Assembly: GCA_021513695.1 (NCBI GenBank)
Contig: CP084166.1
Coordinates: 192,001-256,000 of the forward strand
Origin: Candidatus Heimdallarchaeum aukensis
Lineage (GTDB): Archaea; Asgardarchaeota; Heimdallarchaeia; Heimdallarchaeales; Heimdallarchaeaceae
Direction of reading: 5' to 3'
DNA length: 64,000 nt
The notes under the pieces: model-generated
What the model saw: only the letters and a program-made list of their open reading frames with translations
Told to the model about the DNA's origin: nothing
Databases searched by the model: none
Shown: piece by piece, positions 1 to 9,393 of the stretch
How positions within the stretch are numbered: the stretch's first letter is position 1
How the letters are laid out: each line of letters begins with the position of its first letter
Translations under genes and position numbers: made by a program

Positions 1-996
1 ATATTTTTTATTGTCAATTATTAAATAATCTACTGGAAAGAAAAAGTGATTATCTTCAAATTTAACAGGGTTAATGGATATATGAGCCATTCCTTGTATT
101 TTATCTGCAACAATAAGTGAGAGGGGATTTTTAGCATTTGGATTTGTTCCTATTCCAAATTGATCAACATATAGATTGGTTTTTTTCATAAGTTCTTTCA
201 TCATTTTACCTTTTTTTCCTCCTCCTTCTACTTCTGTAATTAGATTATTTTTTATCCACAAAGTTATTTGCTCTGAAAGATCTTCAGTCCAACCAGGAAA
301 AATGTTTAATCTCCCATTAACAAGTATATTGTCATTGTTAGGACCTATAATATCTATACCTACTTCTCCAGATGGAATATTCATTATTAACCCTTTTTCT
401 TCGAAAATTCCTGTGTCACAGTACATACCAACTTGTTTATTTATATTAATTTCAAGAGAACTCCCGGATGGGTCAAATATCCTAAAATTGTTTGTCTTTT
501 TAATTATATTATATAATTTGGTAGTTAGTTTCTTTAAATAAGGAACATTAACGTCTATTGGCCCGTTTGGCAGAAAATCTTCAATAGAAATTTGTGGAGA
601 AGAACATTGATTTATTGCTTTTCTTTTGAGTAAATCATTGAAAACTGTCACTCTGGTAAGAGAAAAATGAGTGATTGTGAATACAAAATCTGATTCGCTA
701 ACTTTCTTGTTTAGTATTGGGTCATCAGGATCAACATAATGCTGATATGTAGGTTTAATAAAATAGATTTTAGTAGGGTTAGGAAAATTTGACTCAATAA
801 CTTTTTTTATGCTTCTAGCAAGTAAATTTCGTTCAATCATATCTGAAAGTAAAGAAATTTGTTTATCTACAAAATCAGTTGATGTGGGATAATCGCTTAC
901 AATTAAAATTTTATCACTTTTATCTAATAACCAGTATTCTTCCACTAATTTTTTAACTGTAGGAGTAATTTTTCTCTCAAGTGTTTTTATTGACAT
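1..996 (-). CDS. M29/AmpS-like aminopeptidase, 3' end runs off the left window edge
   Basis: Absent from the ORF track because no stop lies in the window. My manual reverse-strand translation from ATG 996..994 is open for all 332 codons (MSIKTLERKITPTVKKLVEEYW ... NIPSGEV ... VDQFGIGTNPNAK ... ADKIQGMAHISINPVKFEDNHFFFPVDYLIIDNKKY). The PSGEV, FGIGTNP and G-x-AHI-x-I blocks resemble the M29 thermophilic metalloprotease family. The + ORF 176..541 is its antisense shadow. Confidence 0.55.
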   Translation of the reverse strand, partial: MSIKTLERKITPTVKKLVEEYWLLDKSDKILIVSDYPTSTDFVDKQISLLSDMIERNLLARSIKKVIESNFPNPTKIYFIKPTYQHYVDPDDPILNKKVSESDFVFTITHFSLTRVTVFNDLLKRKAINQCSSPQISIEDFLPNGPIDVNVPYLKKLTTKLYNIIKKTNNFRIFDPSGSSLEININKQVGMYCDTGIFEEKGLIMNIPSGEVGIDIIGPNNDNILVNGRLNIFPGWTEDLSEQITLWIKNNLITEVEGGGKKGKMMKELMKKTNLYVDQFGIGTNPNAKNPLSLIVADKIQGMAHISINPVKFEDNHFFFPVDYLIIDNKKY

Positions 997-1111: not shown

Positions 1112-1690
1112 TTATTTACTTGGTAAAAATGATTCAAGAGAATGGTTCTTTATATGTTGAATTATAGAATTCTTTGTATCAAAAGTTTCTTTACAAATTT
1201 TACATACGAAAATCTTCTTTTCTTGAATATAATCCCCAAAATTTATAACTATAAATTCTGATTTGAAACTTGATTCTTTTTCTAGATTATTCACAACATT
1301 ACTACAGATTTCATTTTTTGTATTTAATAGGTCAGGTGGGAAATCTAAAGTATCTTCATTTTCTTTAAGATAATCTTCGACTTTTTTTGAGAAATCTCTG
1401 GGAAAATACCATTTATTACCCTTTCTCTCAACAAATTTTTTTAGAAAGTAGTTTATTCTGTTATATAAATTAACCCATGAAGGATGCTGTGAAGCCCCCA
1501 GAAATGATTCAAATTGGCCATATGCTATATATCGAGCAATCGTAGATGTGTCTATTGCTACTGGTTGCCAATCTGCTTTATTCTCAAAATGCTTGAATGA
1601 TTCCACTGCGTCAACTATAGATTTTAGCAAATTTACCTTATCGATATCAAAATTCGCTTCTGTATGTGATGACCCTTTTTCACTAATCAT
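1112..1690 (-). CDS. Hypothetical protein with a C-terminal canonical C2H2 zinc finger
   Basis: 192-aa ORF. FVCKICKETFDTKNSIIQHIKNH (DNA 1142..1210, checked by hand) fits C-x2-C-x3-F-x5-hydrophobic-x2-H-x3-H exactly. I do not recognise the N-terminal 160 aa. Confidence 0.6.
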   Translation of the reverse strand: MISEKGSSHTEANFDIDKVNLLKSIVDAVESFKHFENKADWQPVAIDTSTIARYIAYGQFESFLGASQHPSWVNLYNRINYFLKKFVERKGNKWYFPRDFSKKVEDYLKENEDTLDFPPDLLNTKNEICSNVVNNLEKESSFKSEFIVINFGDYIQEKKIFVCKICKETFDTKNSIIQHIKNHSLESFLPSK

Positions 1691-2034
1691 AATTATAGAA
1701 GCTATAAACCTACTACTTTTAAGTATTATTCTTTTTTCAGAAAGTTGTAAAAAATTGACAAATTTTTATAACTTTTTACTTTTTTAAAATAGTTTGCTAA
1801 ATAATTCCTTATTTAGTGATAAGAAGAGCAATTTCACCAAAATATCTTGGTATTTTAACTAAAAGGTATATTAAGAAAAAAGGTCAATGTTATTGTGAAA
1901 TTATTAGTGATTTTGAGAAATTAATACTTTTTCATATCTTTTTTTAAATAACTAGAAAAAATTATGCTAGAGCAAACACAATCTTTTTATTTTTTAATAC
2001 TATCTATAAATTAAAGAATTCTTGAGTGGTTAAA

Positions 2035-3819: not shown

Positions 3820-4026
3820 ATGGCGAAAAAGAAGAAAGCTGCACCAAAAGCTGATATCCTTATCGTCAAATCAAAAGTTCGAGAATATGTTAAGAGCCTT
3901 GGAGAATTCCAAATGAGTTCAGACTTTATTGAAGCTCTAAATACTGAAGTAGCTGGATTAATCAAATCAGCTGCTGAGAGAACAAAGGCTAACAACAGAA
4001 AGACACTCTCTGCAAGAGACGTATAA
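3820..4026 (+). CDS. Small histone-fold (DUF1931-like) protein with Lys-rich N-terminal tail
   Basis: 68 aa: MAKKKKAAPKAD tail, then KSKVREYVKSL / DFIEALNTEVAGLIKSAAERTKANN / RKTLSARDV, i.e. helix1-loop-long helix2-RKT(L)xxxD loop as in archaeal histones. It ends without helix 3, as I recall for DUF1931 proteins. Strong SD and TATA upstream. Confidence 0.6.
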   Translation: MAKKKKAAPKADILIVKSKVREYVKSLGEFQMSSDFIEALNTEVAGLIKSAAERTKANNRKTLSARDV

Positions 4027-4928: not shown

Positions 4929-6404
4929 TTAACTTAACGATTTTTTTCTCATTTTCTCTATATATTCTTGACTATAACCAAACAAAATAAACTTTCTAGA
5001 ATTTTCAAAAGTGATTTTCACTGAAATTTCTTGTTCATTATCTAAAAATATTTCAGGTAGTAGCATGTTTGATTTTATATTTTCAATTTTTATTATAGGT
5101 ATAGATTTTAGAACTCTGTCTTTTGTTGTTAATACAAATAAATGTTCATCAACAATTGTCCATTTTGCTACATATTCTTTTTTTACGACCTCATTTATTG
5201 AATTTATATAGATATCATCGAAGAAAACTTGTTCTGTTTTTATTATTGCTTCTATTATGAAACTGGTCAGTAGGTAGAGAACTATAAACCAATAAACATA
5301 ATTTTCATCCCAAAAATGAATAACAAATAAAACCATTGAAACAATTAAGAACGCAAAATTACCCAGAAATTGAAGAAAATATTTGTGTGCCTTTTTTAAT
5401 CCCTCTTTTACCTTCGTTTTCTGTTTATAAGCAGTAAAATGCTTAAAATTTAGATATTTTTCATAATCGTTTTCATAATCTTTAAAGAAAAAAGGTTGAA
5501 AGATTTTTTTCCATTTAACTACTCTTGCAGGAATTTTGTAAAACATTTCTTCTTCATTACCAAATGATATTTTAGATGAAATCCAATTTTTAGGTAGATC
5601 TTCTTTTTCTTTTACTCTTAAGAAAACATTTTTTATTTCTCTTTTCATTTTTACTTTTTCTCTTAATTTTACTATTTTAAAATATGAAAAAATTAGTATA
5701 ATTGAGAAAAAAGTACTAAGTACAGTAAGTGTGAAAGTTGTATAATATGCAGTTTTCAGACTTATATTATTGTTAAAAGCAATATAGAGCGAGGGTAATG
5801 TTAGGGCCAACATAAACAAAATCCCTATTGCTTGAATATTGTTTTCTAATCTAAAATTCTGATTTCTAGTTCTCCTAATAGATTTCTTTAACAAATAAGA
5901 TAGTAATTTAAAGGCTTTGTAGTATGCTAAAAAGAAGAAAGTAGGAAAAAGTACAAACATACATATATACAACCATATTGAAAATATAGAAGGTTGTGTG
6001 TAATCTTCTGTTCTAAGAAATGAGCTGAAAATAAGAAAGCTAAGTAAAGTTGAGAAACCTAAAACAAATATGTTAGGAAAAATAAAAGTCCAAATCGCAA
6101 ATGATTCCATTATTAACTTCCTTGAATCAACGATTTGATTCAAAGGATATAAATCAGAAAGAGGATCTTGAATGCTTTTATCATCTGTTTCATTCTTGAA
6201 ATAGTAGCCCTCAAATATTATTTCTTTCTGATTCTTTGATTTCCAATTAACAAAATCTATTATTAGTTCTCTTTGGTTATTGGAAATATCTTTGGTATGG
6301 ATGTTGTAATCTTCAATTTCTCCTTTTTTTCTAAAATAATCAGTTTTAATCCTGACAGATTTTTTATTTCTTGAAATATATTTTTCTTTATTTGTTACCT
6401 TCAT
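4929..6404 (-). CDS. Polytopic membrane protein, unknown function (soluble N-terminus, about 6 TM segments in two groups, beta-rich C-terminal domain)
   Basis: 491-aa ORF starting 4 nt after the stop of the helicase gene. Hydrophobic stretches include IWTFIFPNIFVLGFSTLLSFLIF, IWLYICMFVLFPTFFFLAYY, IGILFMLALTLPSLYIAF, FTLTVLSTFFSIILIFSYF, FLGNFAFLIVSMVLFVIHF and WFIVLYLLTSFIIEAII. No family recognised. Confidence 0.6.
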   Translation of the reverse strand: MKVTNKEKYISRNKKSVRIKTDYFRKKGEIEDYNIHTKDISNNQRELIIDFVNWKSKNQKEIIFEGYYFKNETDDKSIQDPLSDLYPLNQIVDSRKLIMESFAIWTFIFPNIFVLGFSTLLSFLIFSSFLRTEDYTQPSIFSIWLYICMFVLFPTFFFLAYYKAFKLLSYLLKKSIRRTRNQNFRLENNIQAIGILFMLALTLPSLYIAFNNNISLKTAYYTTFTLTVLSTFFSIILIFSYFKIVKLREKVKMKREIKNVFLRVKEKEDLPKNWISSKISFGNEEEMFYKIPARVVKWKKIFQPFFFKDYENDYEKYLNFKHFTAYKQKTKVKEGLKKAHKYFLQFLGNFAFLIVSMVLFVIHFWDENYVYWFIVLYLLTSFIIEAIIKTEQVFFDDIYINSINEVVKKEYVAKWTIVDEHLFVLTTKDRVLKSIPIIKIENIKSNMLLPEIFLDNEQEISVKITFENSRKFILFGYSQEYIEKMRKKSLS

Positions 6405-6408
6405 CTTT

Positions 6409-9393
6409 CTACTTCCATATTATTTTTTTATTGACTTTGAAGATTTTATTCTGTTTTTCTCTTTCCTGAGTTATATTTTCTTTTACAATTTCTCCAAGAG
6501 CAACTATCCTGTTCCAAATAACAACTAATTGACTAATTTCATCTGTTTTTAAAAATGAAAGACCTATAACTATTAATTGTTTTAATGCTTTTTCGTTTAT
6601 TTTTTGATTGTTTTTAATTATTGTTTCATCTTCTTTTAATTCTTTAATCGAGATTCCAATATTAGCATTTTGAAGCATGAGCATGGAATCTAATACCGTT
6701 TCTACTTTTGGATTGATTCTTGGTAACAATAGTCGAAAATAATTACCTATTCTTTGGCTAAATGTAACATATTTTATTTCTTCACTGATTAAGTTCAATG
6801 CGTCATTTTTCTTCTTCAGGGCTATTTTATACTCATTTAATAAAATTAAACTTTGAAATACATCAGATAGTAATTCTGTGAAAAGTTTCTTTTCAAAATC
6901 AATGTATCCCTTACGGAAAAACCTTTTTTCATTATTCTTATATTTTATAACTCCATAACTATCGTTCACTACAGGAATGATAAAAGTTCTATCTTCAAAT
7001 TTTAAGTCATAAGATAATAATTCAACGTTGTCATATTTTTCTCCAATTTTCCACTGCTCATAAGTTTTTTCTCTTTGCAACGCCTTATTTATCATGATTT
7101 GGTTAAATTTACTGATATCTTTTGCTATCTCACTTATATCTTCAGAGATTGAAGGAAAAATATGTCCTATTCCTTTTTCTATTATTCCATCTTCTGACAA
7201 TCCATAAAAGTGTTCATGTTTTCGTTGTATATTAAAAAAGGTGCTAAGACCGAAAGGTAAACTAGGCTCAATTACAGCTATATCCCATATGTTGCTTATT
7301 TTTTTGTCATCTGTTTCATCTACTCTATATGCTCTTCCTTTAGTTTGAATAACAGTTTGATAAGCAGATACTGAAGTTAAATCAATAAGTGTATTTAGTT
7401 TAACAGAGTCCCACCCTTCTCCTAATATGTTTCTTGGCCCAATCAGACATTTAGTTATCCCCTTCTCAAGTAAATAAGTAAAAAGAAGAGTGTATATTCC
7501 TGTTCTCCAATCAAATCCCTCTCCTATAATTTGGACAATTTTCTCGTTTTCTGTTCTTTTTATTGACAATTTAAAATCAAATTTGAAATTCTCTTTCCAT
7601 TTTTCACTTTCTTTTAGTATTTGATTAGCTATGTCTCTATCTGTAAGTATTGATGAAGAAGAAATGGAAACTGGATCTAACTGGTTGGTTTTAGTATTTG
7701 AAATAAGCTTTTCTAAGATACTTAACGACAGATTTTCTGTAGTAAAATCATAAATTATTGCTGAACGTAATTTATCCTTTAAATATGAGAATTCATACTC
7801 TAGAATCTCAACAATAGCATTTATTTTTGATTTACTTGAATTAAGAAAACTAAAAGTTACTTCTCTCTCTTTCATTAAATTATCTACATTCTCTAGTTTC
7901 TCAAAAAATCGACCTAATTCGTTATAATAATTTAAAGCTTTTTTAGAATTGAATTTCTGTTTTCTAAGATAATTCCAATAATAGGCGTGAAGAATAATAA
8001 ATAATTCATTTAATGTAAATTTTTCTTGATCAATTGCTTCTTGATTTTCAAAAATCAGATAAATTTTGTTTACTAAATCATCATTCTTGTATCGTTTTAT
8101 TATGTTTAGATGATTATTTTCATATTCTTCTTTAAGAAATTCAATAGGGTCTTTTAGATTTTTAGATTTTAATGAAGAAAAGAGCTTTCTCAAAGGTTTG
8201 AATTTTTTTTCTATTTCCTTTCTTTCTTCCTCTTGAGGATAGACAAAGTATAACAAATCTTGATAAGGGGCTATGTTTTTTTGTTTTACCGCTGCTGGAG
8301 TAGGTATTTCGATATCAACAGAACCAAAAAGTAATTCGTATATTCCTACTTCTTCATCCTCGACATTCACATCAGTTGGAGGAGTTGCAGTTAAACCCAA
8401 AATGAATGGGATGTTAAATTCTTCAATAAGATAGTTTACAATATATGCCCAAATTGATGTAAGATGATGACACTCATCTAAGATTATTAGACCTATTCCT
8501 TTGTTTTTTAGGGTGTCAATTATCTCTAATGTGTTTTTGTGTAGAATGTCTTTAATCTTTATATCTGAAAAATTAAACTCTCCTTTTATTATCTTATGCC
8601 TTATTTTGTTGATATATTCATTTATTTTTGCTTTATACTCTTCATAATTACTTTTTTTTAAAGATTCAATAAATTCTTTATTTTCATTTTTTTCTTTTAA
8701 CCACATTTTTTCAGCAAAATGCTGTAACATCTCTTCTTCTTGAGAATAAACAGAAAAACGTTGGTAGGTCATTACTGTAATTGGAGCTCTTGATTTAGGG
8801 TCTGTATTTCCAATCATCGTGTTAATGATATTGTTTTCTTTGTCAAGAAACAATTTAATTTTATCTATCCATTGGTCCTGAGTAGAAAAATTTGGTGTTA
8901 GCACTAGAGTATTTTTTGCTATTTGTTTTGCTATTTCAAGACCTACAATAGTTTTTCCTGAACCAGGAGGAGAAACAACATAAAACTTCCTTTCTACTGT
9001 GCTAATTTTTTGTTCAAATTTTTCTAAAATAAGTTTTTGAGATTGCCAAAATTCTCCTCGAAAATACATGTTTGTTAATAAAGAAGGATCAATTTGTCCA
9101 TCTCTGTCTAAATCAAATCTGTATTCACGGAAAGAATTTATTGAAATTTTGATAAAATTATTTATTTTCTCTACTTTTTTACAGTGGGGACAATATTCAT
9201 TTATTTTATACCATTGCTCTAAATGTTCAGAATGAAAAAGACTTCTACAATAAGGGCATAGATAGACTATATCTTCTTTATCAAAAGGTGTAAAGCATAT
9301 CTCACATTTAACAATTTCAGCTCTGCAATTTTCACAGAAATTCCAATCTAACTCAATTTTTGAGTTACAGTTTGTACAACTGTAATGATTCAT
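6409..9393 (-). CDS. Zn-ribbon + RING-like finger + SF2 (ResIII/XPB-like DECH) helicase with a large insertion and C-terminal extension
   Basis: N-terminus: CTNC-x10-CENC, then CEIC-x12-CPYC-x4-H-x2-H-x10-CPHC. Helicase motifs: VVSPPGSGKT (I), ILDECHH (II), LGLTATPP (III), LGEGWDS and QTKGRAYR (V/VI). About 300 aa separate motifs III and V. Confidence 0.8.
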   Translation of the reverse strand: MNHYSCTNCNSKIELDWNFCENCRAEIVKCEICFTPFDKEDIVYLCPYCRSLFHSEHLEQWYKINEYCPHCKKVEKINNFIKISINSFREYRFDLDRDGQIDPSLLTNMYFRGEFWQSQKLILEKFEQKISTVERKFYVVSPPGSGKTIVGLEIAKQIAKNTLVLTPNFSTQDQWIDKIKLFLDKENNIINTMIGNTDPKSRAPITVMTYQRFSVYSQEEEMLQHFAEKMWLKEKNENKEFIESLKKSNYEEYKAKINEYINKIRHKIIKGEFNFSDIKIKDILHKNTLEIIDTLKNKGIGLIILDECHHLTSIWAYIVNYLIEEFNIPFILGLTATPPTDVNVEDEEVGIYELLFGSVDIEIPTPAAVKQKNIAPYQDLLYFVYPQEEERKEIEKKFKPLRKLFSSLKSKNLKDPIEFLKEEYENNHLNIIKRYKNDDLVNKIYLIFENQEAIDQEKFTLNELFIILHAYYWNYLRKQKFNSKKALNYYNELGRFFEKLENVDNLMKEREVTFSFLNSSKSKINAIVEILEYEFSYLKDKLRSAIIYDFTTENLSLSILEKLISNTKTNQLDPVSISSSSILTDRDIANQILKESEKWKENFKFDFKLSIKRTENEKIVQIIGEGFDWRTGIYTLLFTYLLEKGITKCLIGPRNILGEGWDSVKLNTLIDLTSVSAYQTVIQTKGRAYRVDETDDKKISNIWDIAVIEPSLPFGLSTFFNIQRKHEHFYGLSEDGIIEKGIGHIFPSISEDISEIAKDISKFNQIMINKALQREKTYEQWKIGEKYDNVELLSYDLKFEDRTFIIPVVNDSYGVIKYKNNEKRFFRKGYIDFEKKLFTELLSDVFQSLILLNEYKIALKKKNDALNLISEEIKYVTFSQRIGNYFRLLLPRINPKVETVLDSMLMLQNANIGISIKELKEDETIIKNNQKINEKALKQLIVIGLSFLKTDEISQLVVIWNRIVALGEIVKENITQEREKQNKIFKVNKKIIWK

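Follow-up and report, generated by a model that had tools for sequence, protein, structure and literature searches.

A predicted winged-helix protein with a single C-terminal C2H2 zinc finger, and a conserved palindrome upstream of its gene, in Candidatus Heimdallarchaeum aukensis

The zinc-finger gene and its product

We analysed a 64,000-nucleotide stretch of the genome of the Asgard archaeon Candidatus Heimdallarchaeum aukensis (assembly GCA_021513695.1, contig CP084166.1, positions 192,001 to 256,000; referred to here as the window), and focus on a minus-strand gene near its left end that codes for a small zinc-finger protein. The open reading frame (ORF) at 1112–1690 is present as claimed in a preliminary description of this DNA, on the minus strand and with an ATG start, and an exact-sequence look-up identifies its 192-residue product as UJG41000.1 (UniRef100_A0A9Y1BLM5) of Candidatus Heimdallarchaeum aukensis. 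Both GenBank and UniRef label the protein 'C2H2-type zinc finger protein'; its finger has already been recognised by routine annotation and is hence not a new observation. The paper on the two Heimdallarchaeum genomes mentions neither zinc fingers nor transcription factors (PMC8813620). Single archaeal C2H2 fingers were known before, and what our analysis adds is a fold assignment for the N-terminal domain, the definition of a small family of fixed layout, and a candidate operator.

An orthologue with 80% identity is found in the closed genome of Candidatus H. endolithica (CP084167.1), and orthologues with 84% identity occur in other Heimdallarchaeaceae contigs; related proteins and loci are numbered below with P and L, respectively. 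The ratio of nonsynonymous to synonymous substitution rates (dN/dS) of the gene is 0.078 against Ca. H. endolithica, with a synonymous divergence (dS) of 1.46, and 0.10 against the lineage of P0001, so strong purifying selection acts on the reading frame. The features of the gene, as derived from alignments, Pfam profiles and AlphaFold2 (AF2) models with their predicted local distance difference test (pLDDT) scores, are as follows.

1112–1690, minus strand: whole gene, 192 residues, ATG start (ORF list, exact-sequence look-up, dN/dS of 0.08–0.10 against orthologues)
1355–1657, minus strand: winged-helix domain, about residues 12–112 (topology predicted with AF2)
1256–1354, minus strand: variable charged linker, about residues 113–145, predicted to be disordered (pLDDT below 50 for residues 120–145, alignment, composition)
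1124–1255, minus strand: extended finger module, residues 146–189, comprising a pre-finger segment, the C2H2 finger and a tail (alignment, AF2)
1142–1210, minus strand: core C2H2 finger FVCKICKETFDTKNSIIQHIKNH, residues 161–183, with ligands C163, C166, H179 and H183 (pattern, Pfam match, ligand conservation)

The N-terminal domain is predicted to be a divergent winged helix

Two AF2 models, built from alignments of 4 and of 11 sequences, agree on the topology of the N-terminal domain (N-domain); the mean pLDDT is 63 for the former and 76.9 for the latter, in which the N-domain scores near 90. The predicted elements are a helix at residues 18–35, a strand at 44–47, a helix at 48–57, a long loop, a helix at 72–86, a hairpin at 88–96 with strands at 88–90 and 93–96, and a helix at 100–110, and they match the winged-helix topology H1-S1-H2-H3-S2-wing-S3. 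The putative recognition helix, residues 72–86 (WVNLYNRINYFLKKF), has a face of conserved polar and basic residues (N74, N77, R78, N80, K84, K85), and the tip of the wing is basic (K/R-K/R-G). A conserved loop of 14 residues between the second and third helices, FESFLGAsxxPxW, is atypical for a winged helix. The N-domain model is structurally similar to solved winged-helix domains, with SelB as the top match. As modelled, the N-domain is thus a divergent winged helix for which the fold class is clear and the subfamily is not, and this identity is a new point beyond the existing annotation.

Profile searches gave no corresponding family assignment, and residues 1–150 are without a sequence match in Pfam, NCBIfam or the PDB. 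The N-domain of UJG41000.1 has no Pfam match at E values up to 10, and none at E values up to 1 is found for this domain in any of the 11 family members; UJG41000.1 has no NCBIfam match, and a profile search of the PDB with the N-domain alignment returned noise only. The named helix-turn-helix and winged helix-turn-helix families, among them MarR, ArsR, TrmB, Lrp, Fur and TFE, were rejected for the N-domain for lack of a profile match. By these searches no described sequence family includes the domain. The preliminary description had called the N-terminal region unrecognisable, which is correct as far as Pfam and NCBIfam families are concerned but overlooks the predicted winged-helix fold; its suggestion that this region could be a new nucleic-acid-binding partner domain for the finger appears broadly right, except that a divergent winged helix is not a new kind of domain.

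The C-terminal module contains a classical C2H2 finger

The finger of UJG41000.1 has the pattern F161-x-C163-x2-C166-x3-F170-x5-I176-x2-H179-x3-H183, which is the classical C2H2 consensus with Ile at the Leu position, as originally reported, and its last His is followed by nine residues, SLESFLPSK, and the stop codon. A six-frame scan of the window found no other stop-free C-x2-4-C-x12-H-x3-5-H segment, and the chance expectation from 100 shuffles is 0.11 for the loose and 0 for the strict form of the pattern. Pfam models match the finger over their whole length of 23 profile positions, with 23.8 bits for zf-C2H2_4 (E 6e-5; gathering cut-off 27) and 20.8 bits for zf-C2H2 (E 5e-4; gathering cut-off 25.2). 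Neither gathering cut-off is reached, as is often the case with single fingers. A score below the zf-C2H2 threshold had been named in advance as a reason to doubt the finger; taken literally the score is below threshold, but as a refutation this is outweighed, because the ligands are conserved and the predicted fold is beta-beta-alpha. Across the family, seven of the 11 members match Pfam C2H2 models at E ≤ 1.

C163, C166 and H179 are kept in all 11 homologues in the alignment, which are 25–84% identical, and H183 is kept in ten; the concern that homologues might lack the Cys/His ligands is therefore not borne out. P0014 also retains all four zinc ligands, and in P0011, P0012 and P0014 the spacing is C-x2-C-x11-H instead of x12. 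P0005 (L009 3830–4537) has lost the fourth ligand, with HLSEL replacing H-x3-H and a Glu at +3.

The AF2 model predicts a beta-beta-alpha finger, with short strands at about residues 161–162 and 169–170 and a helix at 173–181. Block-mean pLDDT values are 81–92 over residues 151–190, where a helix at 151–154 precedes the two strands and a further helix, 185–188, follows the finger helix. The segment before the finger (F-I-V-I-N-F-G-D-Y-I in UJG41000.1) is conserved, as is the tail H-S-L-E-S-F-L, in which F188 is kept in ten of the 11 members. The best 60 of 72 PDB sequence matches are all eukaryotic C2H2 arrays and align to residues 158–186. Ligand conservation and the predicted fold thus uphold the claim that this Asgard protein from Heimdallarchaeum carries a genuine classical C2H2 finger.

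The label 'Krueppel-type' given to the finger in the preliminary description does not hold, and we rejected membership of that class: there is one finger only and no TGEKP-type link, the finger being followed by SLESFL. Ros/MucR domains are globular, of about 58 residues, with C-x2-C-x9-H-x3-4-H spacing. Membership of this family was also rejected, as ROS_MUCR is absent from the Pfam matches and the spacing here is x12 (x11 in some distant members).

A small family with a fixed layout

Querying 1.84 billion representative proteins with a profile built only from the N-domain gave 11 matches at E ≤ 1e-3; one of them, P0013, was rejected as a repeat-protein artefact, leaving ten credible relatives of the N-domain among these representatives. 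By profile, the N-domain has no relatives outside the small family in this set. A word-indexed protein search with the family alignment returned four proteins, fewer than the exhaustive search of representatives, and a search for related loci with a 5-sequence alignment returned two genome loci and one metagenome locus. All members with a named source come from Heimdallarchaeaceae or Heimdallarchaeota, and the remainder are metagenomic sequences.

All full-length relatives, at 25–51% identity, consist of the winged helix, a variable charged linker and an extended single finger. Since every full-length relative of the N-domain ends in a single finger, the two domains form an obligate pair. The C-terminal module of the family comprises a hydrophobic segment of the form phi-x-phi-N/D-phi-x-x-phi, the finger C-x2-C-x12-H-x3-H, and a tail H-x-L/I-x-x-F-L, while the linker ranges from 6 to 145 residues in the homologues and is net acidic in most of them. 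On these alignments we define a very small, lineage-restricted heimdallarchaeal family with a fixed winged helix-linker-finger layout.

The neighbourhood of the window copy and its orthologues is a stable one of housekeeping genes (POR alpha, SfsA, a tRNA synthetase), with synteny kept over several contigs. Neighbourhoods differ between paralogues, so there is no conserved operon partner in any of the contexts compared, as expected of a stand-alone regulator. One assembly, GCA_964514425.1, holds two family copies, P0005 and P0007. Tandem paralogues, P0004 and P0002, occur in one Heimdallarchaeaceae contig (L001 5164–5754 and 6001–6630), downstream of two TPR proteins of about 690 residues. The distant member P0010 (L014 927–1475) lies among densely packed, overlapping small ORFs that share one direction and have no Pfam match (L014 1–7998). 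This run also includes a 1170-residue ParB_N/HTH_ParB/KorB protein and an RNase_T exonuclease, and it looks like a plasmid, a virus or an integrated element.

A conserved palindrome overlaps the putative promoter

Upstream of the gene lies an imperfect palindrome with a TATA-like element in one of its arms.

1741–1775, no strand assigned: 35-bp imperfect palindrome AAAGTTGTAAAAAATTG-A-CAAATTTTTATAACTTT, in which 15 of 17 positions pair around a 1-nt spacer; candidate operator
1763–1771, minus strand, −81 to −73: TATA-like element TTATAAAAA inside the left palindrome arm, preceded by a purine-rich AAAAAG; putative core promoter

The palindrome extends from −85 to −51, that is, 51–85 nt upstream of the ATG. 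Reading TTATAAAAA and its upstream purines as a putative TATA box and B recognition element (BRE) draws on the general archaeal promoter consensus. The palindrome is the only inverted repeat of such quality in the window, where 0.15 would be expected from block shuffles that preserve local composition, and its dyad has no other copy with three or fewer mismatches in the window and 14 loci (172 kb in total). The dyad was also sought in 2.9 million viral contigs, and we judged the 42 matches to be chance occurrences of an AT-rich pattern.

Conservation of the palindrome extends to the upstream regions of the genes of four family proteins. The exact form AAAGTTRTA-N17-TAYAACTTT is found upstream of the family gene in L001 (P0004), L003–L006, L008 and L010, and the distance to the start codon is equal in H. 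aukensis, the P0001 lineage and the orthologues in L003–L006, L008 (H. endolithica) and L010. For P0004, whose protein is 51% identical and whose genomic context is unrelated, the palindrome lies at −93 to −59. Upstream of P0002, second in the tandem, the palindrome is degenerate and has 15-bp spacing. Between H. aukensis and H. endolithica the palindrome is 91% identical, while synonymous sites are saturated (dS 1.46), and identity falls to 72% in the interval from −50 to −1 and to 42–63% further upstream. This comparison of aligned upstream regions shows that the palindrome is under selection.

A proposed autoregulator and the points against it

In archaea and bacteria, autoregulated repressors classically pair a winged helix with a conserved dyad that covers the TATA region. 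On this basis we propose, with a probability of roughly 0.55, that UJG41000.1 is a small, Heimdallarchaeia-restricted transcription factor that regulates its own gene. Two copies of the protein would bind the palindrome through their winged helices, with the recognition helix 72–86 and the basic wing contacting the outer half-sites AAAGTTRTA. The palindrome overlaps the TATA-like element, and its occupancy would hinder TBP/TFB or RNA polymerase and so give negative autoregulation; further targets elsewhere in the genome would probably be regulated too. The sequence of the putative recognition helix does not differ between the window protein, P0001 and the endolithica orthologue, and P0004 has almost the same helix; the genes of all of these share the outer half-sites. 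The finger module would play an auxiliary part, either by making a second contact at the AT-rich centre of the site or by holding the two copies, or a partner protein, together. By analogy with the C-terminal domains of the Fur family or with the FOXP finger, zinc-stabilised dimerisation or docking seems about as likely as a second DNA contact. We regard UJG41000.1 as a prokaryote-type winged-helix regulator with a zinc module, which presumably acts by binding DNA.

A number of observations weigh against this proposal. Neither domain is clearly basic across the family, the net charge ranging from −3 to +6 for the N-domain and from −7 to +2 for the finger module. The canonical base-contact positions of the finger are T, N, S and Q, none of them basic; in paralogues these positions are often acidic, and they vary between orthologues that share the palindrome. 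Because the contact positions are non-basic and variable while the hydrophobic flanks are conserved, a canonical base-reading finger is argued against. The centres of the half-sites are 26 bp apart, about 2.5 helical turns, which would place them on opposite faces of the DNA, an awkward arrangement for a compact dimer. No similar upstream motif was found for the distant paralogues P0005, P0007, P0009 and P0010. In L002, a clean deletion of 101 nt relative to L003 (at about L002 5963; L003 5041–5141), with flanks that are 100% identical, removes both the palindrome and the TATA-like element upstream of P0001; this is a natural allele without the promoter, present in the enrichment population, or else an artefact of assembly. 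Finally, the palindrome could be the site of another factor, or a symmetrical AT-rich promoter.

Alternative explanations

The same charges lend themselves to a different account, in which the protein binds no DNA and serves as a protein-protein adaptor, its winged helix and hydrophobic-flanked finger docking partners and the palindrome belonging to another regulator. The winged helices of kleisins, cullins, ESCRT-II and Cdt1, together with interaction-type C2H2 fingers, would be the models for such a role, which would suit domains with near-neutral or acidic charge, a finger helix with acidic or variable positions, and the conserved hydrophobic segments around the finger, with F188 in ten of 11 members. 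We consider this unlikely, as a dyad-symmetric element is retained alongside the gene in differing genomic surroundings, the wing tip and the face of the recognition helix keep their basic and polar residues, and there is no conserved neighbour gene that could be the partner.

An opposite departure from the autoregulator proposal would give the finger a larger share in DNA reading. Heimdallarchaeia, the archaea most closely related to eukaryotes, would then possess a transcription-factor family of their own, modular and eukaryote-style, with winged helix and C2H2 finger as two DNA-reading heads on a disordered, acidic and variable linker, each copy reading a bipartite 17-bp arm of the 35-bp palindrome. 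If true, it would provide an early instance, in archaea, of a classical finger put to use in cellular gene regulation; we hold it to be distinctly doubtful.

The protein could also act after transcription as an RNA binder, with a winged helix like those of SelB, La or Roquin and a finger of the zf-met/JAZ kind that recognises double-stranded RNA. SelB is indeed the top structural match, and three of the 11 members match zf-met and three match zf-C2H2_jaz (best E 4.6e-4 and 5e-4). Fingers of these two families typically have H-x5-H spacing and longer helices. The present family keeps H-x3-H, the general C2H2 models outscore zf-met and zf-C2H2_jaz for the window protein, and neither an RNA family nor a tRNA was found nearby, all of which makes an RNA-binding role improbable.

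A similarly low probability attaches to the idea that this is a mobile-element or viral family of Heimdallarchaeia, analogous to the single-finger proteins of crenarchaeal viruses, whose chromosomal copies are domesticated or are genes of resident elements, an origin that would be compatible with a regulatory function. The setting of P0010, in a packed co-directional cluster with the ParB_N/HTH_ParB protein and the RNase_T exonuclease, points in this direction, as do the variable copy number (the L001 tandem and the two copies in GCA_964514425.1) and a match of the finger to the viral family phrog_6283 (E 8.5e-5). The window copy and its orthologues, however, occupy the syntenic housekeeping neighbourhood described above, and neither a structural match in BFVD nor a PADLOC match was obtained.

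That the C2H2 pattern arose by chance in an AT-rich, Lys/Ile/Asn-rich proteome and binds no zinc is very improbable, since a short motif scoring under the Pfam gathering cut-offs would have to be set against 0 strict matches in 100 shuffles, ligands that stay invariant or nearly so at 25–84% identity while the surrounding residues vary, and a confident beta-beta-alpha prediction.

Comparison with known systems

Archaeal TFE and eukaryotic TFIIE-alpha are universal general factors in which an N-terminal winged helix is followed by a C-terminal Cys4 zinc ribbon. UJG41000.1 resembles them in its similar size, in the order of winged helix and zinc domain and in the archaeal-eukaryotic transcription setting; it differs in belonging to a tiny, lineage-restricted family without a Cys4 ribbon, and with no match to the TFIIE_alpha profile TFE-like membership was rejected. 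Fur-family regulators likewise have an N-terminal winged helix, a hinge and a C-terminal module with a structural zinc site, and regulators of this type bind AT-rich palindromes that overlap promoters and are often autoregulated. Their C-terminal domain, however, is an alpha/beta domain for dimerisation that is larger and carries a Cys4 site, in place of the beta-beta-alpha C2H2 finger predicted here, and the linker of the present family is long, variable and predicted to be disordered, unlike that of Fur. Membership was rejected for lack of both a Pfam FUR match and any sequence relationship. The combination of a winged helix, in the form of a forkhead domain, with a single C2H2 finger recurs in FOXP proteins, where the role ascribed to the finger is dimerisation or the binding of partners and not base reading; the order is reversed, with finger and leucine zipper N-terminal to the forkhead, and the resemblance is an architectural analogy only.

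C2H2 fingers in archaea and archaeal viruses are scarce but real, as demonstrated by AFV1p06 (PDB 2LVH), which binds zinc and DNA (PMC3541406). Like UJG41000.1, AFV1p06 has one classical archaeal finger with conserved extensions beyond the 23-residue core, and its fourth ligand is replaced by Glu, which recalls the loss of the fourth His with a Glu nearby in P0005 (PMC3541406). AFV1p06 is a stand-alone finger of 59 residues with disordered tails and a crenarchaeal setting, whereas in the present family, hosted by Heimdallarchaeia, the finger is always fused through the linker to a winged helix; 2LVH is not among the best 60 of the 72 PDB sequence matches. In Tn7-like elements of Asgard archaea, Heimdallarchaeota included, TniQ proteins carry C2H2 fingers as well, and recognition of DNA targets has been proposed for them (bioRxiv 10.1101/2025.07.27.667033). 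Those fingers form tandem arrays, fused to TniQ and carried by transposons, in contrast to the single finger, joined to a winged helix and encoded by a chromosomal gene, described here.

Asgard transcription factors are almost unstudied, and classical C2H2 fingers make up the most numerous class among the transcription factors of eukaryotes. The 192-residue protein and the 35-bp site form a candidate protein-operator pair that can be synthesised in full and so tested in vitro without a culture, and the pair bears on the question whether, in an archaeon closely related to eukaryotes, a classical finger serves to read DNA or to make protein contacts. We consider it of moderate interest, on account of the lineage and of this accessibility to synthetic material. 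Little can be learned from it about how eukaryotic zinc-finger factors arose, because the family is tiny and lineage-restricted, its N-domain has no eukaryotic relatives, and the finger is too short for phylogeny.

Neighbouring genes

A plus-strand ORF at 2026–2175, which lies upstream of the POR alpha gene and is oriented divergently to the gene of the zinc-finger protein, codes for an acidic protein of 49 residues (MVKMSEEEERKIDPDLKKELLEKTGESSSDVDEIAKKLEGKIPTKPKEE); a counterpart is called in the same position in L002–L006, with 47 residues (40 in L004) and no Pfam match. On the other side, the minus-strand gene that lies downstream of the zinc-finger gene begins at 996 and continues past the left edge of the window (1–996). 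A TATA-like AAAATTATAAAAA upstream of it at 1062–1074 suggests that this gene has its own promoter. Its 332 visible residues have no Pfam match at E 1e-3, and its orthologues in L002, L003, L005 and L006 have a weak match to NicX (PF26233).

Further to the right, the plus-strand ORF at 3820–4026 codes for a 68-residue protein with a Lys-rich N-terminal tail (MAKKKKAAPKAD). Pfam gives no match for it at E 1e-3. The sequence of its body matches short histone-fold structures, 9f2c (E 1e-9) and the DUF1931 protein 9qt0 (4e-8), and the protein also matches the 'bacterial histone' CBFD_NFYB_HMF proteins 8cmp and 8fvx (3–5e-7). Its counterpart is a called 68-residue gene in L002 and L003.

The minus-strand gene at 6409–9393 encodes a 994-residue protein in which a RING finger at the N-terminus (zf-RING_2, 27.2 bits; cut-off 27.3) is fused to a ResIII/DEAD helicase core, a RING-helicase layout that is eukaryote-like although the host is an archaeon. 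Downstream of it lies a gene for a 491-residue multi-pass membrane protein without a Pfam match (4929–6404); both genes are conserved in L002, and the second of them also in L003.
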